Positions 2,906 to 26,700 are shown, counted from the stretch's first letter. The stretch is DNA of 32,000 bases from Promethearchaeum syntrophicum (GCF_008000775.2 NZ_CP042905.2:2760001-2792000); one strand, 5' to 3'. The notes: a model not told the origin generated them from the letters alone. Program-made: numbers and translations.

Positions 2906-4009
2906 TCAAGTAATTCTTTTTCGATTAAAACTGATTTTTTTAAAGTAATTCAAACAATTTTGATAATGCAACTTCAATAACTGGTTGAAATTTGAAATAT
3001 GGAATTTTAGATCCTCAAAATCACCAAAGAAGCGATTTATAAACTCATTATCAAGATTTCGTTCTAAAACCCTACCTAAATATTCTTCATTGACAATAAA
3101 GTTCCTTTTTTTCCGATTGCACTCTTGACAAGCACCTACAATATTCCAAATTTTTGAATCAAAAAGATAATCATACGGTACAAAATGATCTGCCTCGGGA
3201 GTATTACTCATATCATCCCCGCAATAAAAACATCTGTTTTCCTGATAAGAATATAGCTTTTTTTTCTCAATTGCTGATATATTCCGCATTTTGGTGTACG
3301 TTCGATCAGCAATCATAAGCTTCTTCTGAAGATTCGGAATTAAATTCAGTGTTTCTAAAAAAATCGCCAAATTGGCTAAAATTGCACTTTCAAGTAAAGG
3401 TCTTTGTGTTTCTATAAAGTGAACTATGTTTTCTGGGATGCCAATATATTTGATATCGACCCAATGTTTTCCCAGGTCCTTAAGAACCCTATTAAATTCC
3501 ATCTCGTCCTTTAGATTCTGTTTAATATCTATAATATTTAAATTAACATCATAAAAATCATAGATATACATATCTTTTCGTAAGAGATAAATCACATTAC
3601 GAAAAAGTTGTTTCATTATTTGTTTTATACATCCATCTGGAATATTTTGGGGAATTTTCTCGCCTGAATCATTTGGAAAATATTCGTCAATTATCTCATA
3701 GAGTTTAACCGAACGATTTTTAGACCTCAATTGCTTCAGTTTGAATTTCTTATACAATACAAAATTAAACCTGAAAAAATATCGGGCTATCTGCTCTATA
3801 GAAATGAAATGAATCTGATTTTCTTTGTCAAGTTTGTGAAGTTTGGTAAGTTTACCTTTTTTTAGGTAGTATATAATAGATTTAAACAGAATGGGCTTAT
3901 AACTCGATGTAAGCGAACCACGGTGGAAAAACTTTGAAAACTCCTGTGCAATTTGCTGATAATCATAACTATTTATTTGCATTATTTTAAATCTCCATTT
4001 ATTACCCAT
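2906..4009 (-). CDS. HNH-family nuclease with an unassigned ~250 aa N-terminal domain
   Basis: The C-terminal HNH/zinc-finger signature is CFYCGDD...EADHFVPYD...WNIVGACQECNRKK (aa 260-303, nt ~3101-3232). An internal ATG at nt 3982 overlaps the stop of the upstream PD-(D/E)XK gene as TAATG. The real start may therefore be 3982 (358 aa), with translational coupling. Confidence 0.75.
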   Translation of the reverse strand: MGNKWRFKIMQINSYDYQQIAQEFSKFFHRGSLTSSYKPILFKSIIYYLKKGKLTKLHKLDKENQIHFISIEQIARYFFRFNFVLYKKFKLKQLRSKNRSVKLYEIIDEYFPNDSGEKIPQNIPDGCIKQIMKQLFRNVIYLLRKDMYIYDFYDVNLNIIDIKQNLKDEMEFNRVLKDLGKHWVDIKYIGIPENIVHFIETQRPLLESAILANLAIFLETLNLIPNLQKKLMIADRTYTKMRNISAIEKKKLYSYQENRCFYCGDDMSNTPEADHFVPYDYLFDSKIWNIVGACQECNRKKRNFIVNEEYLGRVLERNLDNEFINRFFGDFEDLKFHISNFNQLLKLHYQNCLNYFKKISFNRKRIT

Positions 4010-5163
4010 ATGTCACATTTTGGGTCGTAATCTTCAAATTTTCCGCTAAAACTACTACTCGATCGATTATCACTGAATTTTATGGAACACAGAATTCCCA
4101 AATGCAGTAATTGGATTTTAAAAGCGAAATATATGTTTCGATTTAGATTTTTTTCAAGTATCTCTCTAGATTTTAATTTTTCGTAGTCTCCTTCCTGGTA
4201 ATATTTTCTAATTTCCTCAAAATCCATCTTCTTATTACAAAATATATTAATATACATAGTGGGGTATGATTTGATAACGACTTCTAAAATTTCATCCATT
4301 GAAATCTCAGTACGGTTAAAACTATATAGAATCTTCAGAAATTGCTGATATTCAATTTTTCGTTCATAGAGAGTTCTGATCATATAGGCTAATTCAGGTT
4401 CTTCATCGTATAGTTTTTTATTTCCCTTCAATGATTTCTTAATTTTAATCAATATCTTATTATTATATCCCATTTTTAAGAGAGATTTGCAAAATCCTTC
4501 ACCAAGGGGAGTAAGAGAAAAATTATTGTTTGCTTCTTGAAGAAGCCCTAAATACAGACATCCATTTATGACATGAGAATCTTTAAATAAATCAACACCC
4601 CAATCTCTGGTAATAATTGTTTGTAATGATGATTTTTCAATGGGATTTGATAAGGATGTATAGAATATGGGAGAAATATAATTCAATACCTGTGTTTTTC
4701 CGAGTTTAACTAATCTTATAGATGGCTTTTTTTCCGCAAGAAGAAGCTCTATAGTATTTGAGACATCATTTAAAAATATTGGAGCATAGGAAAATCGTGG
4801 CTCGATTTGTTCTATATTTCCAGATTCATCAACTAAAAATAGCCCCAATCCAATAGATTCAATTAAATCACGGTATCGTTTTAGCTTAAATCGTGCAGCT
4901 GCAATATAGGAATACATAACACCTTTTTTATAGATTAATGCTTGACCGATGGCTTTTTCAATGTTATCAATACCTTTTGCTTCTATTGCAAAAACTCGAT
5001 TATATTTATCGACACCAAAGATATCTGGAGCATGCCCATCGATATTTAAACGGAATTTATTGAAGGAAAGATGTTTCAATGTTGGATGTGTATCGATCCA
5101 AAAATGAGTGGTATTTTTCTTCAAATGATTGCAAACAGACTCGATTACAAATGGTTCGTTCAT
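3982..5163 (-). CDS. PD-(D/E)XK-fold nuclease (putative restriction endonuclease subunit) with a helical C-terminal region
   Basis: The N-terminal signature is HAPD47IFGV...FAIE61AK63G followed by QALIYK (nt ~4975-5025), the classic PD...ExK arrangement. The gene lies directly downstream of the C5 methyltransferase on the same strand, and its stop overlaps the HNH gene start. Confidence 0.6.
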   Translation of the reverse strand: MNEPFVIESVCNHLKKNTTHFWIDTHPTLKHLSFNKFRLNIDGHAPDIFGVDKYNRVFAIEAKGIDNIEKAIGQALIYKKGVMYSYIAAARFKLKRYRDLIESIGLGLFLVDESGNIEQIEPRFSYAPIFLNDVSNTIELLLAEKKPSIRLVKLGKTQVLNYISPIFYTSLSNPIEKSSLQTIITRDWGVDLFKDSHVINGCLYLGLLQEANNNFSLTPLGEGFCKSLLKMGYNNKILIKIKKSLKGNKKLYDEEPELAYMIRTLYERKIEYQQFLKILYSFNRTEISMDEILEVVIKSYPTMYINIFCNKKMDFEEIRKYYQEGDYEKLKSREILEKNLNRNIYFAFKIQLLHLGILCSIKFSDNRSSSSFSGKFEDYDPKCDIWVINGDLK

Positions 5164-5323
5164 CTCTTATGATTACCTTATCACTTTTTGTTATAAATGC
5201 TTTTCTACTTTAGAATACTGTGCTATAGTAAACAAATAGTGTAAATGATAAAAAAAATTCCAGATCTTTATAAGGTTTTTACATGTTCAAAATTAAATAA
5301 TTTTAGAAGAACATACCGAACGA

Positions 5324-6592
5324 TTAATAAAAATCTTCAAAATGCCGATATTTCAGAATTTTTTTTGAGAAATATATTCTTTTCGTGGTAATTTTATCGA
5401 GTATTTCATATTTAATTAGTTTCCGAAACGATTTCTTAAAATCTAAATAATGCAAATTAAAATCTTTACATACGTTTTCTAAAGATTGAATAGGAATAAT
5501 TCCTGTTTTTGAAATATAATTTCCAATTAATAAGATTTTAAGTACTTGATATTCCAATTTGGAAAGATCATTAAACTTTTTGATTTTTCTTTCATAGATA
5601 TCTTTTTTCACAATGGAAAAATGTTTATATATCTCATTCCCGATTTGATTTATAACTGGTACAGATACAGTATTTCCTATTTGTTTGTATTGCTCTGTTT
5701 CCGAGATATTTTCTGGAAATGTAAAAGTACTTGGAAATCCTTGGACTTTTAAAAATTCATTTGGAGTTAATCGACGTATTAATTCTGAATTTCTCATTGA
5801 TGGTTTATATATACCAATTTTTTCCCATTTTATATTTTCTTTGCTTTCTTTTATTAAATTACGTTCTCTACCCATTCCTCCACATACAATAGTATTTGCA
5901 ATTCCGCTTTTAGGAATGACTTGAAAACCAAATCCATTTCCTTTTTCTTGATGTCTTTTTTTATGTTTTTTTAATCCGTTAAGATATCTTTGAGATAATA
6001 AATATTTTGAAGATATTTGTTTTTTTAAGCAGTTTTTGAGTTGGATTTCTCTTCTAACGGGTTCAGGAAAAGTAAAATCCGTATAATTTTTAAAACAAAC
6101 GATATAAAGTCTTTCTCTTTTTTGAGGTACGTTATAATTGGCAGAATTGAGAACCTTAAAAAAGACATAGTATTCAAGAAAATATTCAAGTTGGTTCAAA
6201 ATCCATAGAAATGTTCTTTTCTTATTATGGGTTTTTAGGAACTTTACGTTTTCAAAAAAAACAACTTCAGGTTTTTTGATATTTATAATATCAAATACTT
6301 TAAAAACCAACCTGCCTCTTTCGTCCAGAAATCCTTTACGTTTACCTGCAATGGAGAATGCTTGACATGGAAAACCAGCTAGCAAAATATCAAAATCTGG
6401 GATTTTTTTAGGTTTAATTTCTAATATATCTGTGTTTTCGGGTTCATGATTAAAATTATGAAAATAAGTTCTACGCGAATATTCGGATTTTTCACTAGCA
6501 TATATAATTTTTATATTCTCTCCGAAAGCTTGTTCGATTCCAAGCCGAATTCCTCCAATTCCCGCAAACAAATCAATCGCTTTTATAACCAT
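5324..6592 (-). CDS. DNA (cytosine-5)-methyltransferase
   Basis: All canonical C5-MTase motifs occur in order: I DLFAGIGG, IV GFPCQAFS, VI ENV, VIII QKRERLYIV, IX RRLTPNEFLKVQGFP, X YKQIGNTVSVPV. An extra ~95 aa C-terminal tail follows motif X. Confidence 0.92.
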   Translation of the reverse strand: MVIKAIDLFAGIGGIRLGIEQAFGENIKIIYASEKSEYSRRTYFHNFNHEPENTDILEIKPKKIPDFDILLAGFPCQAFSIAGKRKGFLDERGRLVFKVFDIINIKKPEVVFFENVKFLKTHNKKRTFLWILNQLEYFLEYYVFFKVLNSANYNVPQKRERLYIVCFKNYTDFTFPEPVRREIQLKNCLKKQISSKYLLSQRYLNGLKKHKKRHQEKGNGFGFQVIPKSGIANTIVCGGMGRERNLIKESKENIKWEKIGIYKPSMRNSELIRRLTPNEFLKVQGFPSTFTFPENISETEQYKQIGNTVSVPVINQIGNEIYKHFSIVKKDIYERKIKKFNDLSKLEYQVLKILLIGNYISKTGIIPIQSLENVCKDFNLHYLDFKKSFRKLIKYEILDKITTKRIYFSKKILKYRHFEDFY

Positions 6593-6626
6593 TATTTAAT
6601 CATTTACAATAATTTTATTTAATAAC

Positions 6627-7292
6627 CTATTGGTTTATATGATTCAGAAAATTGTAACAATTTTCTTTTAATTTACAAATGGAACAATGGGGATTTAAAG
6701 GTTTACATATAATTGCTCCAAAATCGATTAAAGAATAATTATATTTTTTAAAGTTTTTTTCCGGTAAAAGTCTTTCGGCTAAATTCCAAAATATCGGATC
6801 GTATTTATGATTTTTATTATCATTGGTTAAAAAGAAAAATCTTTTGAAAATTCTTATTATGTTGGAATCAACTAAGGGAAGCTTAATATTTTTACCAAAA
6901 CAGATTATTGCATGAGCCGAATATTTACCAATTCCTGATAATTTTAAAAAATCAGCAATTTTGAAGTCCCTGAAAGATTTCTCATTGTTTCTTATTGAGT
7001 TTATTGCATTTTTTAGAAATGTGGCCCTTTTTATTAATCCCAATTTCTTAAAAAAATCGGTAAAATCACCTTTATAAAGGAGTAATGCATTAATATTTGG
7101 GAAAATTTGAATGAATTTGTTATAAGACTCAATAATTTGAGATGCTTTTGTTCGTTGTAAAAAAAATTCGCTTATAAAAGCTTTATATACATTCGGATTA
7201 ATACGCCATGGAAATGATCTTAGATTATCAGAACCCCAATTGAGTATTTGTGTTGTAAAAAATATCTTATTAGATACACTTAAAATCATCAT
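6627..7292 (-). CDS. HhH-GPD DNA glycosylase with a 4Fe-4S cluster loop (endonuclease III/MutY/Mig superfamily; probably a Mig-type T/U:G mismatch glycosylase)
   Basis: The helix-hairpin-helix is LSGIGKYSAHAIICFG and the catalytic Asp region is LPLVDSNIIRIF. The C-terminal cluster is CKPLNPHCSICKLKENC, with spacing C-x6-C-x2-C-x5-C. The gene sits immediately upstream of, and on the same strand as, the C5-MTase. Confidence 0.8.
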   Translation of the reverse strand: MMILSVSNKIFFTTQILNWGSDNLRSFPWRINPNVYKAFISEFFLQRTKASQIIESYNKFIQIFPNINALLLYKGDFTDFFKKLGLIKRATFLKNAINSIRNNEKSFRDFKIADFLKLSGIGKYSAHAIICFGKNIKLPLVDSNIIRIFKRFFFLTNDNKNHKYDPIFWNLAERLLPEKNFKKYNYSLIDFGAIICKPLNPHCSICKLKENCYNFLNHINQ

Positions 7293-7361: not shown

Positions 7362-8372
7362 ATGCAAAAATTCCAAAATAGAATAATTATTGATCCCAAA
7401 TTTTTTTTGTCAATAGAAGAATTATCAAAAAAAAATATAGATCTTTCCAGCAATTTTGAAAAATTTCCACTATATTCTGGTGAATTCCTCAATGAAGGAA
7501 GTCTATCTTTTAATAGTATCGAAGTAAAAAATCTATCAGTAGAAAAAGGCCAAAAAATATCCAATGACTACATTATCGGAGCATATGATGAATCTATAAA
7601 TAAATATAATGGATTGGCAGGAAATGCGTATTTAATATCTCATACATATGTATATATTGGAAACAAAGACTACATCCCAGCAATTTATTTAAGTTTTTTT
7701 TTCTTTTCAAGATCCAAAGAAATAGCAGTGAACAATACTAACTTGATATATTCAAAAGATTTGGAAAGTGAAGCAAGGAAGTTAATGCATATTCAAATGT
7801 TGGAGTTTTTAAAGGAAAATTCAATAAAAAATAGTATATTATTGATAGACGGCCCAATTTTCACGGGTTCATTATCTACCAAAACGATCGATTTTAACGA
7901 ATATATGGTTGAAAAAAATATTCTACCAATCTATATTGTAAAAAATAGTATAAGCAATCTAGTAAGTGATAATGTTTTTTCATTAAAAAATAAATATAAT
8001 AGCGATATGCATTGGGCATATAAATTTTTGAAACCAGGTCAAAGATCGAATTTTTTCATTTATGAGGAAAAAAAAAGCAAGAGAAGAACAAAAGTATTTT
8101 GTTATCTAAAAACTTTTGATATTAGTCCAGTCAGAATTGAAGTTTACAAAAACATTTATTTAGGAAAACAAGAATTAGTTGAAAATCTTATGCATCTGAT
8201 TTATTTTCTCATTATAGTTCAAGGAGAAAAACAAAATCCCCAACCCAGACCTATTATAATAGCGGAAAGGTTTTCAAGAGAAAGTATTAAATTATTCAAT
8301 TTAAATAAACTAATGAGGAAAATAGGTATAGAAGGAATTATGAATCAAAATAGAAATATGGTGAATTTTTAA
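7362..8372 (+). CDS. nurA: NurA-like 5'-3' nuclease
   Basis: NurA-type motifs occur in order: IIGAYDES (first acidic motif), ESEARKLMHIQMLEF, ILLIDGPIF, IVKNSISNL, SDMHWAYKFLKPGQRSNFF, KVFCYLKTFDISPVRIEV, RPIIIAERFSRESI. The gene ends 2 nt before the HerA-like gene. Confidence 0.7.
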   Translation: MQKFQNRIIIDPKFFLSIEELSKKNIDLSSNFEKFPLYSGEFLNEGSLSFNSIEVKNLSVEKGQKISNDYIIGAYDESINKYNGLAGNAYLISHTYVYIGNKDYIPAIYLSFFFFSRSKEIAVNNTNLIYSKDLESEARKLMHIQMLEFLKENSIKNSILLIDGPIFTGSLSTKTIDFNEYMVEKNILPIYIVKNSISNLVSDNVFSLKNKYNSDMHWAYKFLKPGQRSNFFIYEEKKSKRRTKVFCYLKTFDISPVRIEVYKNIYLGKQELVENLMHLIYFLIIVQGEKQNPQPRPIIIAERFSRESIKLFNLNKLMRKIGIEGIMNQNRNMVNF

Positions 8373-8374
8373 AA

Positions 8375-9916
8375 ATGAGTTGGATCGTTTTAGGGGAAGA
8401 TAAGGGAGAAATTAGTCTTGTATCTTCAAGGGAAATTGATGGTATTGCACCGAAAGGAACTTATCTCACAGTAGAAAATGAGAAGAAAAAATATATTGTT
8501 AGAGTCACGAAAAGCTTTCAGACTCAACCATACAATCCTTCACCCTTGTTGATAGATATGAATTTAGAGGGTTTAGAAGCGGATAAAAAATGTCAAAATA
8601 TAATTAAAGCAGTCAGAATTAAAGATATTTCCGATAGAGATGATGGATTAATTGATTTTATACGCCCTCAATTAAAAGCCAGAAGGTCTACAGTTCAAGA
8701 AGTAAAAGATGCGGTAAAAGATAAGAAAGACGGTATCCCAATATTTTTATCTACGGTATTTGCAAATTCCATTCAAATTTTAAAGGACAACAATAAAAAT
8801 CCGATACATATTAATTTGCATGATGACATTTTTTTTCATCAAATACTGATATGTGGAAAAACTGGAAGGGGAAAAACGGTGGCTTCGAAATATTTAGCAC
8901 AATTTTTTGTGGAAAAAATAAAAGGTGCGGTTTTAGCAGTTAATGTAAAAGAAACAGATTTAATTAAGATGTATAAGAAATCTGAAACAAAGGATGCTTC
9001 GATTTTAAAGGAATGGGATGCTATTGGAGAATCAGCTCATGGAATGTTTAATTTTCAAGTGTATTATCCTTCGAATACATCATATTCCCCCGATTTGGAC
9101 ATAGATAGAACATATTTTAAACCAATAACATTGAATATTAATGAAATCGACCCTGAATCTTTAAAAGGGATTTTAAATAACATTACAGATATTGCTGCTC
9201 ATCACCTTCCTGATATTTTTAGACATTGGAAGGATTTTCAAACTTCTGACGATTATAAATTTATGGACTTTTATAATTATTTTTCAAGAAATGATAATCG
9301 AGAATTCCCAACTTTAAATTTAAGAGGGGATGAAGCCCAAATTAAATTACCTTATGGGACCTATCAAAATATTTTGAGAAATTTAAATTCCGCTGCAGAA
9401 TTCTTCGATGATCCTGATGGTGAATTTATAACCGAAAATAATATTCTAAACAGAGAAACAATGAGTGTTATTGATGTGGCAAATAAAAATGGGATTAATT
9501 TCGGAGCGATTTTATTACGGGACTTATTAAAAAGAATAGAAAAAGCAAAAACTGAAGGAAAATCGAATGTACCAATTTTGATAATCATAGATGAAGTACA
9601 TCAATTTTATAAAAATGCAAATTCTGCTGAAGCTTTAGGAGATCTTGATGTTATATGTAGAACAGGGAGAAGCAAGAAAATTGGTGTAATTTTTTCATCT
9701 CAAAATCCTAATGATATTCCAAAAGGATTGGAATCGGTCATTAACACTAAAATTTTCTTCGGATCGGAACACTCAGTTATTAAAAAATTCGGTTTTAATG
9801 TTTCTGAGAATGAAATAGAAAATTTGGAAAGAGGATATGCTCTAGCTACGATTTATGGTACACCTCAGGTTAAATTTATAAAATTCCCTCTTTCTTTTTC
9901 AGGTGTTTTCACATAG
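8375..9916 (+). CDS. herA: HerA/FtsK-type hexameric ATPase (DUF87-like)
   Basis: The N-terminal beta-barrel-like segment is GEISLVSSREIDGIAPKGTYLTVENEKKKYIVRV. Walker A is ICGKTGRGKT (nt 8855-8878) and Walker B is ILIIIDEVHQF. The Arg-finger/sensor region CRTGRSKKIGVIFSSQNPNDIP is typical of HerA. Confidence 0.8.
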   Translation: MSWIVLGEDKGEISLVSSREIDGIAPKGTYLTVENEKKKYIVRVTKSFQTQPYNPSPLLIDMNLEGLEADKKCQNIIKAVRIKDISDRDDGLIDFIRPQLKARRSTVQEVKDAVKDKKDGIPIFLSTVFANSIQILKDNNKNPIHINLHDDIFFHQILICGKTGRGKTVASKYLAQFFVEKIKGAVLAVNVKETDLIKMYKKSETKDASILKEWDAIGESAHGMFNFQVYYPSNTSYSPDLDIDRTYFKPITLNINEIDPESLKGILNNITDIAAHHLPDIFRHWKDFQTSDDYKFMDFYNYFSRNDNREFPTLNLRGDEAQIKLPYGTYQNILRNLNSAAEFFDDPDGEFITENNILNRETMSVIDVANKNGINFGAILLRDLLKRIEKAKTEGKSNVPILIIIDEVHQFYKNANSAEALGDLDVICRTGRSKKIGVIFSSQNPNDIPKGLESVINTKIFFGSEHSVIKKFGFNVSENEIENLERGYALATIYGTPQVKFIKFPLSFSGVFT

Positions 9917-9936
9917 TAAATAATGGGGTTTAAAAA

Positions 9937-10086
9937 ATGTTAGATGAAGAAAAAAAAATGTTTGGTAATTTAATAGATAGTTTGCACCCTAATGATTTAG
10001 AAAGAAAAATAATTATGTTGCTTCACGAAAAGAAGAATTTTGATGAAATAATTGATATTTTATTGGAAAATGATGTGGATGATTGA
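9937..10086 (+). CDS. Untracked 49-aa acidic helical micro-protein (hypothetical)
   Basis: I translated this by hand: MLDEEKKMFGNLIDSLHPNDLERKIIMLLHEKKNFDEIIDILLENDVDD*. It starts with ATG 21 nt after the HerA stop. Its stop at 10084-10086 overlaps the likely ATG (10079) of the next gene within ATGATTGA. It is below the size cutoff of the ORF track. In such AT-rich DNA a 49-codon ORF can occur by chance. Confidence 0.4.
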   Translation: MLDEEKKMFGNLIDSLHPNDLERKIIMLLHEKKNFDEIIDILLENDVDD

Positions 10087-12178
10087 AATTAATTACAAGT
10101 TGGAAAGAATAGAAAATGGTGAGGTGATTTCTTCTTATAATGTTCCCAAAGAAATACAAGCAATCCCCCGATTTTCTGTTATAGAAGCACCCAATTCTTC
10201 AGGAAAAAGTACTCTTTTTCATATTATTTCTATAGCATTTGGAGGTACTACTGATAAATCCATTCCTGATTCTTTAAAAACAAAAATGAAAAATTTATTG
10301 GATAGAAATCATCATAATTTAGAGTTTGAAATAAAAATCTTTGAAAATGATGAAGTTTTACTACGATCCTGGAAATCAAAAATGGATACAGTTCCTAATA
10401 TCGAATGTCGTATAATGAATTCGTTAAAAGTAACCAATCTGATTAATTTTAAGGAAAAATTTAAGTTGATCTATGATATTCCTGAGGATCCTATTGGAAG
10501 ATTGAATGCAATGATTCCTGATATAAAATTCTTCTTCTCCGAAATAATGAATAAATTAAAACACTTTTTAAGAAATATTAACGACCTTCAAAAGGAATTA
10601 AAGAAATACGATAAAGAGATTTTGAACAAAAAAAAGAAAAAACTGGAAGAAAATAGTGAATTAATGAAAAGAATGAATTTAAAACTAGATAAAGATGAAA
10701 AATTTATAAACGACTTGGAAAAAGCATTTATTTTTAAATATTATAGGAAATATGAAAGGGAAAAGAAAGAATGCGAGAAAGATATAAAAATACTAGAAAA
10801 AGATGAACGAAAATTAATGAAAGCTGGAACTCAGAAAAAATCGAATTTAAATGCAATGGAAATACAGCTTAAATCGTCCTATGTAAATTTAAAAAGTAAT
10901 CTATACAAAATTTTAGAGGATTTGGATGGAAAAATTGAGAAGAAACAATTAATAGAGTTGAAAGAAATTGAATTTTTAGATTATAGTGACAATAAAACCC
11001 TCCCGAATAATTTCAAAGAAAACTTGGGAGTTATTGAAGAATGTTTAAACGAAAAGCAGAAAGAAATTCCACAAGAAGATATTAAAAAAATTAAATTATT
11101 TTCCGAATTATTGAAAATATTAGAGAATTACAAGAAATATGAAATAGAAATGCCTGGAAAAATACAACTTAAAATTTTCATGAGTGATCTGGAAAAAAAC
11201 TTGAAAGATTTACATAATATCCAAAAAAAAAATAGTTTTTTTTCAGAAAAAATAAAAAATATTAATGAAATTAAGAAAACTTTTATTAAAACAGAAGAAA
11301 AATTAGAGAAATATCATAGTAAAAGAATTGAATACACGAAAGCTGATTTAAAAAAACAGGAAAATATTATTGATGATTTACTTGCAAAAAAAAAAAAAGA
11401 ATGTAAAAAAATTACTAATGTTTTTCTACAATATGAAAAAAGATATAATATTTTAGGAAGACCTGTTGGAATTGACATTATTCCAATTAGTACAAAAAAA
11501 TTTAATGATTATCAATATTTGGATGAAAAATCCCTCGAAAAGGCAATTAGAGATTTTAAAAATACAAATTCAAAAAAACATAATGAAATAAATAATTTGA
11601 AATCTCAAAATAAGGATTTAAGTAAAGATATAGAAGATATGGAAGAAAAAGGACCTCATAAGTATCAGAAACATGAAGAAAAAATAAAATCAATTAGAGA
11701 AGTGGCTGCAAAACTTACAAATTCATATGAAGAAAAATATGTTAAATTTTTTGATGATATTCAAAATAAAAACGTGAAAAAACTAATTAGAGAAGAGAAA
11801 CTAAAATTTTTTGAAATTATTTTTAGCTTTTTAGGTAAAAGAATTAAGCAAGTTAAGCATGAGGATAAAATATATGAAATTAAATCAATGGATTTAATTA
11901 AAGAAGAGATAATTACTAGTAAAGGAGAAAAAATTAGATTCATTGATATGGGAACGGGTCAATCTCAAAGTGCTTATTTACGAAGTAAACTTACTACTAC
12001 AGATAATAAAAAAATTATTGCATTATTTGATGAAATCTCAAATATGGATAATAAATCACTTGAATTGTTATATTCTAAAATAAATGAAAATTTTTTAAAG
12101 AAAAAACAGTTAATATGTCTATTAAATCAACCAGATATTCATAATCAAGGTGTAATAACAGTTAGGAGTCTGGAGTAA
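10052..12178 (+). CDS. SMC/Rad50/RecF-class ABC ATPase with a long coiled-coil insert and no zinc hook
   Basis: Walker A is EAPNSSGKSTLF (nt ~10190-10213). About 450 aa of Lys/Glu-rich heptad-like sequence follows. The signature-like motif is DMGTGQSQSAYL (nt ~11944-11980) and Walker B/D-loop is KIIALFDEISNMD. No CxxC occurs in the coiled coil. The tracked TTG start at 10052 is doubtful; the ATGs at 10070/10073/10079 are better (MIEINYKLERIENGEV...). Confidence 0.75.
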   Translation: MIFYWKMMWMIEINYKLERIENGEVISSYNVPKEIQAIPRFSVIEAPNSSGKSTLFHIISIAFGGTTDKSIPDSLKTKMKNLLDRNHHNLEFEIKIFENDEVLLRSWKSKMDTVPNIECRIMNSLKVTNLINFKEKFKLIYDIPEDPIGRLNAMIPDIKFFFSEIMNKLKHFLRNINDLQKELKKYDKEILNKKKKKLEENSELMKRMNLKLDKDEKFINDLEKAFIFKYYRKYEREKKECEKDIKILEKDERKLMKAGTQKKSNLNAMEIQLKSSYVNLKSNLYKILEDLDGKIEKKQLIELKEIEFLDYSDNKTLPNNFKENLGVIEECLNEKQKEIPQEDIKKIKLFSELLKILENYKKYEIEMPGKIQLKIFMSDLEKNLKDLHNIQKKNSFFSEKIKNINEIKKTFIKTEEKLEKYHSKRIEYTKADLKKQENIIDDLLAKKKKECKKITNVFLQYEKRYNILGRPVGIDIIPISTKKFNDYQYLDEKSLEKAIRDFKNTNSKKHNEINNLKSQNKDLSKDIEDMEEKGPHKYQKHEEKIKSIREVAAKLTNSYEEKYVKFFDDIQNKNVKKLIREEKLKFFEIIFSFLGKRIKQVKHEDKIYEIKSMDLIKEEIITSKGEKIRFIDMGTGQSQSAYLRSKLTTTDNKKIIALFDEISNMDNKSLELLYSKINENFLKKKQLICLLNQPDIHNQGVITVRSLE

Positions 12179-12180
12179 AA

Positions 12181-13116
12181 ATGGAAATTGAAAATTCTAT
12201 TACCGATGATCAGCTTTCGATTTTAGAATATTATTATATAAAATTAAGGGGAAAAATCAAATTAGCAAAAAAAAAATCATTGTATACCTATTTCTTAAAA
12301 GCAAGTTTAAATAGAAATTTTAAAATTATTCAAAGTTCAGTAGGTTTTTTCCCTGAAAAATTCTCAAATACTGCTTTAGAAGAACTAATTGATAAGAAAT
12401 TAATTTATGAAATGAAATTTAGAAATAAATATACGATCTCAGGAAAAGGCATTTTCTTTTATGAATTAGCAATCAATAAATTATCTGTTATAGATTTAGT
12501 CGATAATCTTGAACGTTTTTTTGATTTCGATAGTAAAGCCCAAGAGAAATTGAAGGAATCCGAAAAAATAATTTTAACTATGATGTTATGTCTAAGATCA
12601 TTTTCTAGTGAAGAAAAAATATCAATCAAAGACAACCTTCACTTGGAATCGTTAGATAATTTAATTGGAGATATTATCAAATTTCTGTCAGATGAAGAGA
12701 TCACTAAAAAAATTAAAACTAAAAATGAGTTTTATAAATCAAAAAAAAAAAGAATTGAAACTGAAACTGATTACGGTCCATTAGTTGATGAATACATACT
12801 ATACGAAGCTTTTCATAATAAAACCAGGGATTTGCCAAAAAGAAGTGAATATATTTTCTGTTCTACAGGAAACAAAGAATATTATTTGAATTTAACTGAT
12901 GAATCAATGAATCTAAGTTATGAAAAAATTGAATTTCTAATTAATAAGATATTGAATTCAGTGCCTACAAATAACAAACATGCTAATTTAAAAAGATATT
13001 TGGAGTTTTTAGAAGAAAAATCATTAGAGAAGATATCATCAATTATGGCAAGTAATAAATTCAATAAGATTGAAGTTTCGGAAAATATTAGAAATAAAAT
13101 CTTATTTGGATTATAA
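12181..13116 (+). CDS. Hypothetical protein with an N-terminal winged-helix-like domain; last gene of the NurA/HerA/SMC-like operon
   Basis: The gene starts 2 nt after the SMC-like gene stop. LSILEYYYIKLRG ... ALEELIDKKLIYEMKFRNKYTISGKGIFFYE looks like a helix-turn-helix plus beta-wing. It has no calcineurin-type phosphoesterase motifs (DxH, GDxxD, GNHD/E), so it is not Mre11. Confidence 0.5.
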   Translation: MEIENSITDDQLSILEYYYIKLRGKIKLAKKKSLYTYFLKASLNRNFKIIQSSVGFFPEKFSNTALEELIDKKLIYEMKFRNKYTISGKGIFFYELAINKLSVIDLVDNLERFFDFDSKAQEKLKESEKIILTMMLCLRSFSSEEKISIKDNLHLESLDNLIGDIIKFLSDEEITKKIKTKNEFYKSKKKRIETETDYGPLVDEYILYEAFHNKTRDLPKRSEYIFCSTGNKEYYLNLTDESMNLSYEKIEFLINKILNSVPTNNKHANLKRYLEFLEEKSLEKISSIMASNKFNKIEVSENIRNKILFGL

Positions 13117-13336: not shown

Positions 13337-14605
13337 ATGGAAGAGACTGATGTTAAATTTAAATTTTATTCTAAAATTTTTCACGTTAATGGAGATGAAT
13401 TAATTAGTAATGATTTTATAGCGATTTCTGAATTAGTGAAGAATAGTTTTGATGCGAAAGCAAAAAGAGTAGAAATAATTTACGAAGAATCAAAAGGCGA
13501 AACAGGAGACACTAATGGAAGATTTATTATAGAAGATGATGGAGAAGGTATGGATAAAGATATTATTATTGATTATTGGATGGGAGTAGCAGGAGATTAT
13601 AAAGAAGAATTAAAAAAAAAAGGTAAAACATTATTGGGTGATAAAGGAATAGGTAGATTGGCAGCATCACGTATTTCCAATCAATTGATTATGATAACTA
13701 GACCAAAAAAAAAAAATATTGAATACAAAATCAAAATAAATTGGAATAAAATATTTGAAGAACGGTATGCAACGGATTATTCTACGAAATTAAGAGAATA
13801 TTTACCAGAAAACTTTCGAAAAAAAAGTGGAACAAAGTTAATATTAGAAAATATTAAACATAAATGGAATGAGACAAAATTAAAAGAATTAAAAAATCAT
13901 TTATCAAGATTAATTAATCCATTAAATCCAAGTATTGATAAAAAAATTCGTTTAACTCTTCCAGATAAATATAAATCTCTTTCTGGATATATTTTTTCTT
14001 CTAAAATTATAAAAACTCCAATGTATTCAATCAAAGGAAGAATTGATGAGTCAGGAATAATTACTTTTTCAGCTTCATGTAAATTAATTGAGGAATCAAG
14101 ATTAGAAGAATTTTCGAATAAAAAAGAAAAAATTCAAATGGAAAAATTTGCCAAATTTCAGTTTGAATATAGATACTGGGATTTTGATGATCCTTTGCTT
14201 AATAAATTGTCTAATATTATTGACTATGTAAAAACAGAAATTCGAAAAAATATAATATATCACTCAGGAATAAGTGTATATCGTGATAATTTTCGAGTTA
14301 TGCCATATGGTGATTATAATTTAGATTGGCTTGATTTAAATACTAGAAGAATTAAGCGATTGTCAGATTTCATTCAAAATGACCATATTATTGGAGCAAT
14401 TTCATTTTCTTCAAAAGATAATCCAGATTTAAAGGATCAATCAAATCGTGAAGGTTTTGACAAAAATATTGAATTTCAAATATTTAAGGATACGGTCATC
14501 AAGACAATTTCAATTTTAGAAAGATTTCGACATATTTTTCTAATGGAAATAAAAAAAAAAAAAAAGAAGCAAAAAAAAAGAAACAAAAAATCGATGAACT
14601 TTTAA
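13337..14605 (+). CDS. GHKL (Bergerat-fold, MORC/HATPase_c_3-like) ATPase; probably the N-terminal part of a longer frameshifted gene
   Basis: The N-box is ISELVKNSFDAKA, the G1 box is IEDDGEGMD and the G2 box is GDKGIGRLAASR. A conserved-looking GISVYRDNFRVMPYGD...DWLDL segment follows. The last 17 aa (KKKKKKQKKRNKKSMNF) are read through A15 and A9 tracts and look like out-of-frame translation. Confidence 0.7.
   Translation: MEETDVKFKFYSKIFHVNGDELISNDFIAISELVKNSFDAKAKRVEIIYEESKGETGDTNGRFIIEDDGEGMDKDIIIDYWMGVAGDYKEELKKKGKTLLGDKGIGRLAASRISNQLIMITRPKKKNIEYKIKINWNKIFEERYATDYSTKLREYLPENFRKKSGTKLILENIKHKWNETKLKELKNHLSRLINPLNPSIDKKIRLTLPDKYKSLSGYIFSSKIIKTPMYSIKGRIDESGIITFSASCKLIEESRLEEFSNKKEKIQMEKFAKFQFEYRYWDFDDPLLNKLSNIIDYVKTEIRKNIIYHSGISVYRDNFRVMPYGDYNLDWLDLNTRRIKRLSDFIQNDHIIGAISFSSKDNPDLKDQSNREGFDKNIEFQIFKDTVIKTISILERFRHIFLMEIKKKKKKQKKRNKKSMNF
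14551..14565 (+). repeat. A15 homopolymer at the junction of the GHKL and histidine-kinase reading frames (followed by an A9 run at 14571-14579)
   Basis: I counted this directly in the sequence. It is the longest A-run I found in the window, and the only long run that coincides with a change of open reading frame. Confidence 0.9.
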
Positions 14606-14655
14606 TTTATCAAAAAAGAAAAAAGAAAAAGACTCAGCAACGTCGAAAAGATGAA

Positions 14656-15564
14656 TTGGTCAAAGTCAAAAATTTAAAAGAAAATATTGTTAATATTTCA
14701 AAATTAACAAGCACAAGCGATCTTAAAACAGCGTCCAAAAAGATTGAAAAATCTTTAACGATCTTTGAAAATTCTATAAAAAATTTACAAAAAGAAGAAG
14801 TAAAACAAATCCAAGATGAAATGGAATTAGTAAAAAATACAATTAGTGAAAATAAGAAAGAAAAGAAAGAAATTAAAGAATTAAAAGGTTTATGTTCAAT
14901 CGGACTTCAAGTTGAAACTTTGATACATGATGGTAATAGCATTTTATATCATTTATCTAATATTGTAAGTGATAGCAAAGATGAATTCGAAAATGAAGAA
15001 AAAGTTCTATCTAAATTGAATAATATATCTGATGAAGTAAATTCTTTACAGTTTGTCTTAGATAGGATAAACCCTATAACAAAGAAAGGTTATAACAAAA
15101 AAATATCAATAAATTTAAGTGATTTTTTAAAGAATTATGTAAATAAATGGAAAAATCAATTAAAAACTGATCAATTTACAATTAATGTTGATATTCCTAA
15201 AAGAGATATAAAAATATCTTTGATGCAAGGTGAAATTTGTACTATAATTATGAATTTGCTTGATAATAGTATATTTTGGCTTGCACAAGATAAAACAAAT
15301 CATAATAAAAAAATTGTTATAGATATTCAATCTAAAAAAAAAAACTTGCATCTAATTTTTTCTGACAATGGTAAAGGTGTTCCTAAATCGGAACAAAAAA
15401 GGATATTTGAACCCAGAATATCTTTAAAACAAGATGAAGGATGGGGACTAGGATTATATATTATAAGAGAAATTTTGGATGAATTAAATGGGGAAATACA
15501 ATATCGTGATTCACCACTTCCTGGAGCAAATTTTATAATAATAATACCAAAAATTGTGTTGTGA
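14656..15564 (+). CDS. Histidine kinase core (HisKA_3-like DHp plus HATPase_c catalytic domain)
   Basis: The candidate phospho-His is in ETLIH91DGNSILYHL (nt 14926-14928), resembling the LHD motif of HisKA_3. The N-box is IIMNLLDNSIFW, G1 is SDNGKGVP and G2 is GWGLGLYIIREI. The only in-frame start is a TTG. The frame is open upstream to nt 14488, which suggests fusion with the upstream GHKL ORF. Confidence 0.75.
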   Translation: MVKVKNLKENIVNISKLTSTSDLKTASKKIEKSLTIFENSIKNLQKEEVKQIQDEMELVKNTISENKKEKKEIKELKGLCSIGLQVETLIHDGNSILYHLSNIVSDSKDEFENEEKVLSKLNNISDEVNSLQFVLDRINPITKKGYNKKISINLSDFLKNYVNKWKNQLKTDQFTINVDIPKRDIKISLMQGEICTIIMNLLDNSIFWLAQDKTNHNKKIVIDIQSKKKNLHLIFSDNGKGVPKSEQKRIFEPRISLKQDEGWGLGLYIIREILDELNGEIQYRDSPLPGANFIIIIPKIVL

Positions 15565-15570
15565 TTAATT

Positions 15571-16680
15571 ATGGTAAAGTTTTCGTTACTTTATATTGAA
15601 GATAAAATAGATATGATAGGAGATTTAGAAACTCCACTAAAAAAACGATATGATAAAGATATTGAATTTTCATTTGAATCAGATTTTGACGTAGCTAAAA
15701 ATACTGTAAATGATAAGATCTTTGATATTGTTGTGATAGATGTTAAAGATGGATTAGGTAATTATTCTGGGCTTGACATATACGAAAAAGTATTAGAATA
15801 TGGCTTAGTTCACACTATTTTTTTTACTGGGTTCCTTTCGGATATTAAAAAAACAAAAATTGAAGAATCTGATTATTGTTCAATTATTGAAAAAAATACT
15901 AGTGGAAGAGATAATATTTTGAAAAAGATTGATGAAATCATAAATTCAGAACTATTTCTATTTAAGAAAGAAATCATTATTTTAACAAACAAATCTATCA
16001 GAGAATCAATAGATGTCCTTTTTAATCTTTGGCAAAATAGTAATTTTACTAAAGATGAAAAAAAGAAATTAATAATCAATAGGCTTTCACATACTGTACT
16101 CAATAATAATAATTTTGATAGGAAATCAAATTCTGATTATTTCATTTTTCCACCGTTAAAAAATTCAAATGCAAATTTTCAGATGGGAGATATTGTATAT
16201 CCGAAAAGTGAGAATGAAATGCCTCAAAATCAAAGGAATTATTACATTATTCTCAATAGAGATTGTTCATTAACACTAGTTAATCCACGAAAAGGAAAAG
16301 AACCTTTACCAAAAACGGAAAAGATATTATTTGCTTCTATTTTCGAATTACGTGAATTATGGGAAAATTATTATACTCGGTTAGAAATAAAAACAAAAAA
16401 AAGAAAAAGTAAAAAATCATTCCTAATGGAAATTTTAGCCCAAAAGATATCGAGATTCTTTCTAATTCCTTTTGATTTCATTTCCAATAAAGTTCTTATT
16501 GATTTTGAAAATTTAACCAGTTTGGATTACGTCCATTTTTCAAATGAGTATGAAGTGATTACTAGTTTAGTTGATGATTTTCGACATAGAATTAATCAAA
16601 GATTTTCACTACATTATTCCTCAATTGGCTATGCAGATTTTGATGAAAATACATTAATTCAAAGTTTATTAGATCCCTAA
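15571..16680 (+). CDS. Response regulator: canonical receiver (REC) domain fused to a ~240 aa unassigned output domain
   Basis: REC landmarks sit at CheY-like positions: E10-D11 (LLYIED), D57 (DIVVID57V), T86 (IFFT86G), K108 (SIIEK108). The gene starts 6 nt after the kinase stop. The C-terminal region (GDIVYPKSENE...YYIILNRDCSL...ILFASIFEL...) has no motif I can assign. Confidence 0.7.
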   Translation: MVKFSLLYIEDKIDMIGDLETPLKKRYDKDIEFSFESDFDVAKNTVNDKIFDIVVIDVKDGLGNYSGLDIYEKVLEYGLVHTIFFTGFLSDIKKTKIEESDYCSIIEKNTSGRDNILKKIDEIINSELFLFKKEIIILTNKSIRESIDVLFNLWQNSNFTKDEKKKLIINRLSHTVLNNNNFDRKSNSDYFIFPPLKNSNANFQMGDIVYPKSENEMPQNQRNYYIILNRDCSLTLVNPRKGKEPLPKTEKILFASIFELRELWENYYTRLEIKTKKRKSKKSFLMEILAQKISRFFLIPFDFISNKVLIDFENLTSLDYVHFSNEYEVITSLVDDFRHRINQRFSLHYSSIGYADFDENTLIQSLLDP

Positions 16681-23779: not shown

Positions 23780-26700
23780 CTAGGATCTTCTTATTTTTTC
23801 TTCTATAATTTTCTCCAAGTGATCAAAAGTGGCAGGGGAGAAGTTAGGAGATGGTTTAAATAGAGAGTATTCTTTAACAATATTCGGATCAGAGCATTTA
23901 AAATATTTAACATTCGTTCCGAAAATGGATTTTACAATAAATTCCGCAATATAAATTGGAGATTCTTTTGATGGAATGACTACTAAAACCATGAGATCAT
24001 CCCTTCTTTTCCCTTTAAAAATCCAAAGAATTTCTGAATTAGCTCTAAAAAAATTCCATATCTTCTCTAAATCACTATATCTTCCGAGTTCATAATTCCA
24101 AAGATATCCCATAAGAATTTCATAAAGTTGAGTAAAAATGGATACTTCAAGATCATTTCTGTTCATTTCTGCAATGTTTGGATTAAAATAAACAAGTTTA
24201 TCAAAATTAGATTTTTTGTTGAATAGAAAAATTGGAAGTTTAAAGATTTCCATCATTTTTATTGGATGATTATAGAGTTTCTGCCAATCAGATCCATCTA
24301 TAAAAATAGATAACGAATTTTGCTTATTCGTAGTCACTTGATCTATACATTTTTTTATTGTTTGCTTATTTTCTAGTGAAAATACTAGTTCTTGATTAAG
24401 TGTATCAAGAATTTTTACAAATTTTTGTTCTTGGGTAAATTCTGATGGAAAATGTTCTGTTTTCGATGGAATTGTTGATATATCATTCAAAACTCTCAAG
24501 TGATGTTTATTACGTAATAAATTTTTAAATTTTTCAATTTCTAGTTCAAAAACATGTTCAATTTCTTCAAAGGGACATCCATATTTATTGGATTCTACAA
24601 AAATTTGTTGTGCATCTAAATTCCATGGATTTCCATATATATATAAACTATATAGCTTATTTAATTCACTTAAACAATTGGGTAATATTTGAAATTTATT
24701 ATTACCAATGTTTAAAGTCAATAAATTCTGGAGATTTGCAAAAGAGTCGGGTAAAGCAGATAAATCATTAGAATATAAGTCCATTTTGCGAAGATCTTTC
24801 AGATTTTGGATCTCTTTTGGAATTTTCTTTATATTTATCTCTGTAAGTGTCAAGTTTTGTAGATAGGGAAAATTTAAAATTTGCTTTGGAAAATCACCAA
24901 TTAATTTCTTATTTATTGTTATAGAAGTTACGTGATTGTTTTTGGTTGTAAAGTAAAAATCATCAGAATCACCATAATCATCTGGGTCTAAGAAGTGGAT
25001 ATCTTCACCAACTTTTTTTGATAATTGGATTAATTCCCGTTTTTCATCACTTGAAATTCTCGCCCCTTGATAAATATAGGAAGAATTTTTTTCTAATTCG
25101 GAATAATTGGGATTTTTTCCATAGTGAATATAATTTAAGGCATCTAGATCATCAATATAACCGGGAAGGGAATCCAGAGAAAGAGAAGGGAAATATAATG
25201 AAGAAATTCGTCCGAAATTAGAACTAACACACTCGTCAGGTAAACCACCTAAATCTGATTCTAATTTGCGCAATATTTGGACATCTTTTGAAAAAAGACG
25301 CATTCCTTGAAAAAATTGGTTCTTCAGTGATTCTGAGAGACACTGTTTTTCATTAATTTCTAATCGCACTAAATTAGGCATATTCAATAGAGACTCAGGT
25401 AAAGAGAGAAGGGGATTTTCCCATAATTCAAGAACAGCAAGTGATTGAAGATGGTCAATACAGGATGGTATTGATGATATTTTATTTGAACTTAAATTTA
25501 ATGTTCTTAATTCTTTCAATTTTTGAATATGTTCAGGGATTTCCGTAAGGGAATTTTTAGAAAGATCTAAATCATGTAAGTTAGGAAATTTGAAAATCAT
25601 TTCGGGAATAGTTTCTAGATTTAAATTTGATAATTTGAGTCTTTCAACACGATTATCTCTGATTTCTGCAAAATCATGAAATTTTTTAATTTCTAATCCC
25701 AAAGATTCAGATAAAAGCTTCAAATTTTGATATTCATCCTTTTTCTCAAACTCATATAACCCTTTTAACCATAGATAAATACGTTGTGGTTCAGTTGCTT
25801 CGAGTTGTTGGTAATCTAATCCTCGAATTGGATTAGATTTAAGGCTCAAAAAACTTAGATCGGCAAAATTAAAAAGATATTCAGGTAAAATTTCGAATTT
25901 ATTGTAATCTAAATTAATATTAATTAATTTTCTTAATTTCTGAAAAGACGCGGGAAATTCAGTTAAATTATTACTTGTTAGGTCAATTTTTTGAAGATTA
26001 GAAAAGTTACCGATAGAATCCGGAAGGGTAGTCAATTTTTTCCCACATATAGCAAGTTCAATAACATGCCCATCTCTTAATGTGAAGTGAAAAGGATGAT
26101 ATGTACTAGAGCGCATTCCTGAAAAAGGATTATTAGAACTAATTGCAGGAATTTCTTCTCCAAATAAATCTTCGAGATCAAGTAAAGCATCAACTTCTGG
26201 TGCGAATAATTTTAGATCGTAGTAGAATTTCATTTTTTGAACTGTTTTTTTTTGATTAATCAATTCTTCATGATCCAGTATCTTTGAAATATAACCTAAG
26301 TGTGCTTCAGCCAGATAGATTTTAGAATCGATAGATATTACTTTCTCAAAATTTGATTTAGAGGCTTTAAAATCATTTAAAATAAAATAATTAATTCCTA
26401 AATAATAATATGAAATCCAATTTTTGGGATTTAATGAAATACTTTTATTAAATGCCAGAATGCTTTTTCTATATTGAAATTGGTAGATATAATATTTTCC
26501 CTTTATTAATGATAAGGTTGCTTGAAATGTATTATAAAATTCATTTTCAATTTTTTGAGTAATAAAGGAGTCTTGATTATTCTTTTCTATTTTCTCAATT
26601 ATATTCAATGCTCTTTGAAATTGATTAAGATTTAGATAGGTTTCAGCAGAAATTAATAGAATAATTAAATCATTTGGATTTTCTTGAAGAACTTGATCAA

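Follow-up and report, generated by a model that had tools for sequence, protein, structure and literature searches.

The closest described relatives of the locus analyzed here are the HEF_HK/Response_reg_2 pairs, delineated computationally, and in bacteria only, by Bellieny-Rabelo, Pretorius and Moleleki (2021; PMC8011034). In these pairs, a soluble kinase built from HATPase_c_3, a DHp segment (a histidine followed by an acidic residue), and HATPase_c adjoins a receiver-like protein without any other known domain. The linkage of the two proteins reaches 91.6% over 644 bacterial regions, in which C5 methylases, Vsr, and type II restriction–modification (R-M) genes are enriched; the authors favor a regulatory role toward R-M and leave the output domain and archaea untreated. 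Three further types of system bear on the comparison. Detocs is composed of a kinase (DtcA), a receiver that acts as a buffer (DtcB), and a receiver-effector (DtcC), the effector being mostly a PNP (Rousset et al. 2023, bioRxiv 10.1101/2023.01.24.525353). Iyer, Abhiman and Aravind (2008; PMC2292703) described paraMORC and MORC GHKL ATPases in R-M contexts, with a kinase or receiver unmentioned, and GHKL-Shedu (paraMORC3, VcSduA; PMC12137116) consists of one protein that carries a DUF4263 PD-(D/E)xK nuclease. Here, we analyze a 32,000-nucleotide stretch of the genome of Promethearchaeum syntrophicum (NZ_CP042905.2:2760001-2792000; hereafter, the window), in which three consecutive open reading frames (ORFs) between positions 13337 and 16680 encode a MORC-like histidine kinase together with a protein bearing a receiver.

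This module is a divergent copy of a widespread two-gene family known from one computational paper, not a new kind of system. A first-pass annotation, made from the sequence alone, had taken it for a new one, a claim that fell because the family is found in at least 576 genomes and its architecture was published in 2021 (PMC8011034). In a sample of one genome per GTDB species, full-length relatives of the kinase occur in at least 576 species-representative genomes covering most bacterial phyla; the archaeal relatives among the matches listed are three metagenome-assembled genomes (MAGs) from Woesearchaeota, Methanobacteriota, and Nitrosopumilus. The copy in the window was probably acquired horizontally from bacteria. 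We file the pair under the published architecture by its anatomy and context and not by hidden Markov model (HMM), because PF19191 (HEF_HK) and PF19192 (Response_reg_2), whose presence in the searched library is unconfirmed, matched neither the window ORFs (E ≤ 0.1) nor nine kinases, 63 receiver proteins, and 19 class-2 or other partners from the wider family (E ≤ 0.01). Our preferred reading, to which we give a probability of roughly 55%, is that the module belongs to a methylase-linked family of MORC-like kinases and receivers with a restriction-like logic, in which unmarked DNA would start a phosphorelay that turns on the output domain of the receiver protein as an effector.

The three ORFs lie on the plus strand exactly where the first-pass annotation had placed them: ORF1 at 13337–14605 (422 amino acids), ORF2 at 14656–15564 (302 amino acids, with a TTG start at 14656), and ORF3 at 15571–16680 (369 amino acids), separated by 50 and 6 nucleotides, respectively. 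The annotation was also right to suspect that the first two are one gene. Adding a single A to a run of 15 adenines (A15, 14551–14565) yields a fused protein of 742 residues; upward of 100 bacterial proteins of ~700 amino acids that carry PF13589 and PF02518 align with 97–100% of it (E-values down to 1e-100). ORF1 and ORF2 are therefore one gene, since their fusion matches uninterrupted homologs from end to end.

The 5′ part of the kinase gene (13337–14605) encodes a paraMORC-type GHKL ATPase followed by a conserved middle domain. ORF1 matches HATPase_c_3 with an E-value of 9e-21 and displays the N-box (E32/N36), G1 (D67-G69-G71), and G2 (G101-K103-G104-G106) motifs recognized at first pass, and the middle domain contains D330 and R371, both invariant in an alignment of 38 sequences. 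The N-terminal ~170 residues of the GHKL part also match the NCBIfam model of the BbrUII/HgiDII restriction enzymes (NF050001; E = 2e-19), with a score far below the family cut-off (69 vs. 550 bits), and its best PDB sequence matches, MORC2 and PMS1, are weak (E ~0.4). MORC/MutL-type ATPases carry Bergerat-fold motifs I–IV of the HATPase_c_3 kind and then a transducer domain resembling S5; the motifs are present in ORF1. A second GHKL ATPase domain, apparently of the MORC/MutL type, stands in the sensor position, as had been proposed.

The 3′ part of the kinase gene (14566–15564) encodes a lysine-rich linker, a DHp helix, and a CA domain, with ORF2 matching HATPase_c at an E-value of 2.6e-16. 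The predicted phospho-acceptor histidine, H531 of the fused protein (H91 of ORF2; codon 14926–14928), is invariant in the family and sits in an LIHDG motif with an aspartate next to it, while the CA domain shows N640/N644, D677-G679-G681, and G704-G706. Thus, the histidine and the HATPase_c domain were identified properly at first pass; the ‘HisKA_3-like’ label attached to them was wrong because, as a profile, the DHp and CA half matches solved HisKA-type kinases (i.e., ZraS, ThkA, FixL, and HK853) with E-values of 1e-27 to 1e-37. Overall, the kinase has no membrane segments and is arranged as HATPase_c_3, a central DHp histidine with its acidic residue, and a C-terminal HATPase_c. Every invariant catalytic residue of both ATPase domains, together with the phospho-histidine, is present in the window protein when it is placed in the 38-sequence alignment.

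The second gene of the pair, ORF3, encodes a receiver protein that is 100% identical to DSAG12_03023. Taken alone, it has no match in Pfam, NCBIfam, or PADLOC, and a word-indexed search returned only the protein itself and one relative, 82% identical (locus L005), whereas an exhaustive HMMER search retrieved 63 representatives, 45 of which match Response_reg (PF00072). The receiver (REC) domain spans 15571–15945, and its E10, D11, D57, T86, and K108 align with the conserved acidic pair, phospho-aspartate, threonine/serine, and lysine of the family, confirming the residues assigned at first pass. An AlphaFold model built from the 63 sequences is confident (pLDDT 90.9, pTM 0.80), and its residues 1–125 superpose on solved receiver domains at 2.7–3.1 Å with target TM-scores of 0.75–0.80 in Foldseek. 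Two long helices (residues ~127–178; 15946–16116) then connect the receiver with the output domain, and the Foldseek alignments to PorX reach through the helical linker of that protein. What can be shown for autophosphorylation and His-to-Asp transfer in this pair is the conservation of the residues involved (H531, the N, G1, and G2 boxes, and D11/D57/T86/K108), from which both activities would be predicted. Among the 63 receiver proteins, 28–29 weakly match PDC-M60B and PDC-M60C, two candidate models of PADLOC (E-values of 1e-5 to 1e-6), probably through the receiver domain. Four of the same set weakly match PADLOC SduA (DUF4263, the Shedu nuclease) at E ~1e-3.

The C-terminal output domain (residues ~183–369; 16117–16680) is about 190 residues long in our delineation and consists of mixed β-strands and helices. 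It had been described as free of any DNA-binding or recognizable motif and as not obviously a PNP, and both descriptions hold: neither 33 single sequences of it nor a profile gave a significant match to Pfam, NCBIfam, PHROGs, or PDB sequences. Foldseek comparisons of the model, run with the whole receiver protein as query and thus with the receiver domain included, gave only receiver-driven matches in PDB and BFVD. Within the reach of these tools, we reject an ordinary DNA-binding output, since a confident model produces matches at the level of the receiver only. The sole invariant residue with chemical potential is C232 (codon 16264–16266), present in 59 of 59 sequences; G206-D207, K248, D311, P300, and G353 are also conserved. 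Several known folds and motifs were considered, and none is supported. One BFVD match of the model to a PemK-like protein, which is weak (E = 5e-3), together with a motif pattern, prompted a test of the MazF/PemK fold; this evidence is insufficient, and an hhalign comparison with an alignment of 71 MazF sequences returned a probability of 1%. Similarly, deaminase-, PD-(D/E)xK-, and sortase-like domains were set aside by eye from the conservation table, as the candidate histidine and glutamate are not conserved and no ExK motif is present.

The arrangement of the two genes is strongly conserved. The 80 best loci include three that end at the kinase, leaving 77 with downstream sequence. In 57 of these, the gene directly downstream of the kinase matches the receiver-X profile (class 1), often with an overlap of a few bases, and in 14 more (class 2), the downstream protein is 410–465 residues long, one copy being shortened by a contig end. 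The partners of the two classes are homologous from end to end (hhalign 97.7%, E = 1.5e-12), and intermediates are matched by both profiles, so that kinase and receiver-X share the same order in 71 of 77 loci. Over its full length, the window receiver protein is homologous to what the downstream genes of the bacterial cassettes encode (E = 1e-16).

The first pass missed the context that defines the family, a DNA methylase. Of 83 loci, 56 encode a C5 cytosine methylase, which in 30 of them lies directly upstream and on the same strand, and 35 encode Vsr. Loci that lack a C5 methylase have a gene for a protein of 412–478 residues directly upstream of the kinase, which proved to be an N6/N4 DNA methylase in all ten cases tested. 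Many cassettes are tight operons limited to the kinase gene, the receiver gene, and a methylase gene, to which Vsr may be added, and the window kinase has its closest relatives (33–35% identity) exclusively in Vsr–methylase–kinase–receiver operons. Compact examples of bacterial cassettes are L004 of Pontibacter fetidus (JAAEAA010000034.1; Vsr–methylase–kinase–receiver) and L080 of Citrobacter freundii. One kinase, P0099 (864 residues), bears an EcoRII-N (B3-like) DNA-binding domain ahead of its GHKL module (E = 1.5e-19), which fits a kinase that reads DNA sites. A sub-type of the cassette (L027, 3050–10942; L052, 2499–10234; and L195, L196, L198, and L199) contains two extra genes between methylase and kinase, for a 358-residue protein with an IDGT motif and for a HerA-like ATPase of a different lineage, 24–27% identical to the HerA encoded elsewhere in the window. 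Its operon is tightly packed in the order methylase, 358-residue protein, HerA, kinase, receiver-X, and glycosylase or Vsr, and the 358-residue protein has no detectable similarity to the window NurA. An enterobacterial cassette used as query had no match in E. coli genomes.

The methylase context points to a methylation-based, restriction-like logic and not to an infection sensor of the Detocs type. This logic is suggested by the near-universal methylase, by the many cassettes that hold little else, by the MutL/MORC ATPase in the sensor position, and by the occasional fusion to EcoRII-N. Put differently, the pair is probably a restriction-like defense switch because elsewhere it is almost always found beside a DNA methylase. 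In the scheme we envisage, the methylase would mark the DNA of the host, and the MORC-like module would engage DNA that lacks the mark. The kinase would then autophosphorylate on H531 and pass the phosphoryl group to D57, after which the receiver would dimerize via its helical linker and switch on the C-terminal effector, whose putative toxic or nuclease activity would damage the invader or the cell itself.

Several observations weigh against this reading. The window module has no adjoining methylase: the nearest (5324–6592) is about 6–6.7 kb away on the opposite strand, belongs to an operon of its own that includes an HNH gene, and has no special kinship to the cassette methylases. As assembled, the kinase is out of frame. 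The output domain carries no recognizable nuclease or toxin motif, its fold having been searched only together with the receiver. Finally, we found no experimental study of this architecture, and the only paper on it is computational and proposes regulation (PMC8011034). A bolder form of the restriction-like reading would make the family an unrecognized class of methylation-dependent immunity, in which a MutL/MORC-like DNA clamp drives a His-to-Asp relay that ends in a new, cysteine-dependent effector fold, and in which, for this Asgard lineage, programmed −1 frameshifting at A_AAA_AAG sets the ratio of MORC-like protein to kinase as a damper or phase switch; we regard this form as tentative and would sooner expect it to fail than to hold.

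The first alternative is that the pair is a regulatory two-component system tuning the expression or activity of R-M genes, with the C-terminal domain as a regulatory or binding output. Response regulators are mostly just that, no library searched gives the output domain a nuclease, toxin, or enzymatic signature, conventional R-M nucleases do lie near some loci, and regulation is what the authors of PMC8011034 favor. However, in many cassettes there is only a methylase, at times Vsr, the kinase, and the receiver, with no separate restriction gene to regulate, and a methylase without a cognate hazard has no need of such a partner. The confident model of the receiver protein, with its receiver-level Foldseek matches, contains neither a helix-turn-helix nor a winged helix, and the invariant cysteine accompanied by conserved acidic and basic positions suggests chemistry over DNA reading. 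Regulation is thus weakened by the lack of a DNA-binding fold and by cassettes that offer no other gene to regulate, and we consider it unlikely.

The copy in the window is atypical in that it is split at a slippery run of adenines and has no methylase of its own, which raises the question of whether it is intact. The break itself is well delimited. In the zero frame, the A15 run is read as ATA AAA AAA AAA AAA AAG, and translation stops at 14603–14605, whereas the ORF2 frame is open back through the run and overlaps the end of ORF1. Three-frame translation places the frameshift site at 14551–14566, and the heptamer A_AAA_AAG (14560–14566), a −1 slippery sequence, occurs there in the correct phase, where both kinase frames overlap. 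Past the heptamer, the −1 frame reads EAKKKKQKIDELL and continues into conserved kinase sequence; the residues across the junction of the fused protein are ...MEIKKKKKEAKKKK... Frameshifting by −1 is known at A_AAA_AAG in E. coli dnaX and at A_AAA_AAT in Sulfolobus fucA1. The window site belongs to the same heptamer class, is in the correct phase, and falls at a junction of overlapping frames, a likeness read here from the sequence alone.

For a full-length kinase, a −1 shift is required, and ribosomal frameshifting, slippage in transcription, or an error in the homopolymer length may each account for it; the last two explain the sequence equally as well as recoding. Without a shift, the gene would yield a MORC-like protein of 422 residues and perhaps a separate kinase fragment. 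If the genomic length of the A15 run is correct, the products would be this 422-residue protein and, upon a −1 shift, the 742-residue fusion. The 82%-identical relative L005 (MAG GCA_030613185.1) has a poly-A tract at the same place, with the kinase frame at −1, and the kinase frame upstream of the TTG at 14656 is conserved in it as coding; this evidence for frameshifting is weak because the L005 contig begins only ~65 nucleotides upstream.

A second alternative, that the window module is a decaying and inactive remnant that has lost its kinase frame, its methylase, and key effector residues, takes the frameshifted assembly and the absence of an adjacent methylase or Vsr at face value. It may also call on four departures from the consensus of the output domain, where the window protein has F191, R230, S233, and S351 in place of the Y, P, D, and R of most members (Y191F, P230R, D233S, and R351S). 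Yet F191 and S351 are found in other family members too, and positions 233 and 351 covary, being D/R as a rule, H/S in four loci, and S/S in the window; because they change together, S233/S351 looks like a paired contact and not a loss of function. Selection argues in the same direction. In a comparison with L005, which has the same substitutions, the kinase part shows a dN/dS of 0.21, the receiver protein one of 0.26, and the output domain one of 0.30, with dS of ~0.36–0.41, and the values of 0.21–0.26 indicate that both genes are under purifying selection. The catalytic and phosphorelay residues are all intact, beyond the poly-A tract the kinase frame stays uninterrupted and conserved in the two genomes, and the break coincides with a canonical slippery heptamer, whereas other A10–A13 runs in the window leave their ORFs whole. 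We therefore judge decay to be quite improbable. Least credible by far is membership in Detocs as a divergent DtcABC system, which we reject despite the shared general logic of a kinase and a receiver joined to an output of non-DNA-binding type in a defense context and despite the weak PDC-M60B/PDC-M60C matches, since neither the window kinase nor the receiver protein matches any PADLOC model, Detocs included, at E ≤ 0.1, the window module has no stand-alone DtcB, PNP domain, further known effector of Detocs, or TPR sensor, and the kinase–receiver family is as a rule linked to a methylase.

The genes around the module are consistent with the defense-island-like block suspected at first pass. 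The first 17 kb of the window are low in GC (22–31%, against 27–37% beyond) and dense in defense-type genes. Family HMMs detected only one receiver in the 32-kb window, in line with the earlier statement that a stand-alone REC protein is missing, and no Vsr. A minus-strand operon at 2906–7292, annotated by library searches, encodes an HhH-GPD glycosylase (6627–7292; E = 1e-7), the C5 cytosine DNA methylase mentioned above (5324–6592; PF00145, E = 1e-79), a 393-residue protein without matches, and an HNH protein. The arrangement resembles an R-M system with a T:G mismatch glycosylase in the place of Vsr. Homologs of this glycosylase (E-values of 1e-25 to 1e-30) replace Vsr within kinase cassettes L011, L013, L027, L042, and L055, and the window methylase and glycosylase (5324–7292) may, as putative partners, provide modification and mismatch repair for the kinase–receiver module.

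Between the C5 methylase and the kinase gene lies a plus-strand, four-gene cassette (7362–13116) that encodes NurA (336 residues), a HerA-like ATPase (513 residues), a 708-residue ABC/SMC-like ATPase, and a 311-residue protein. The same genes recur in the same order in ~20 metagenome loci (L172–L193), with HerA identities of 47–56% and E-values of 1e-27 to 1e-80 for NurA, 1e-13 to 1e-61 for the 708-residue protein, and, where detected, 1e-7 to 1e-14 for the 311-residue protein. Because the cassette travels as a unit in loci that contain no kinase or receiver gene, it is a separate system, and we reject it as part of the kinase–receiver system in the window. It looks like an uncharacterized defense candidate in its own right; its only PADLOC matches are weak ones to mad8, HerA, LmuB, or PtuA. 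The window also contains an ORF of 902 codons (175–2883, plus strand) with only a weak AAA_22 match, whose start adjoins two A13 runs (156–168 and 189–201), and one of 1772 codons on the minus strand (23780–29098).

The family is present in hundreds of species, and apart from the weak SduA hits of four relatives, neither the window pair nor its relatives match any of the defense-system models that PADLOC names. The family's output domain may represent a new effector fold. If the restriction-like reading is true, these cassettes would be restriction-type systems whose ‘restriction enzyme’ is a phosphorelay, and MORC/MutL-type ATPases, which also function in eukaryotic chromatin silencing, would be linked to two-component signaling. 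The archaeal copy is evidence of a module moving between domains of life and being maintained without an adjoining methylase, and its sequence offers a clean candidate case of −1 frameshifting from an Asgard archaeon in culture.

Compared with known systems, the module shares with Detocs the use of a His-to-Asp relay as an immune switch, here suggested by the genes, and a receiver fused to an effector in the stead of a DNA-binding domain. ‘Detocs-like’, the name chosen at first pass, is therefore apt as an analogy and mistaken as a statement of membership: the window module has neither DtcB nor a PNP ATP nucleosidase, it lacks the TPR sensor, in whose position stands a MORC/MutL-type ATPase, and the kinase–receiver cassettes include a methylase, whereas the description of Detocs (bioRxiv 10.1101/2023.01.24.525353) mentions none. 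Like GHKL-Shedu (PMC12137116), the module would place a defense effector under a GHKL ATPase thought to govern it; unlike GHKL-Shedu, its output domain matches DUF4263 in neither Pfam nor PDB and lacks the ExK motif. The paraMORC proteins (PMC2292703) and BbrUII/HgiDII (NF050001) have the same HATPase_c_3-type N-terminal GHKL domain and neighborhoods rich in cytosine methylases and Vsr; they join the ATPase to helicases or nucleases, in contrast to the window kinase. The closest likeness is to the pairs of PMC8011034, with the same kinase architecture, the same adjoining receiver without a known output, and, for the family as a whole, the same strong link to C5 methylases, Vsr, and R-M genes; the window copy differs from those pairs in being archaeal, split by a frameshift, and placed away from a methylase.

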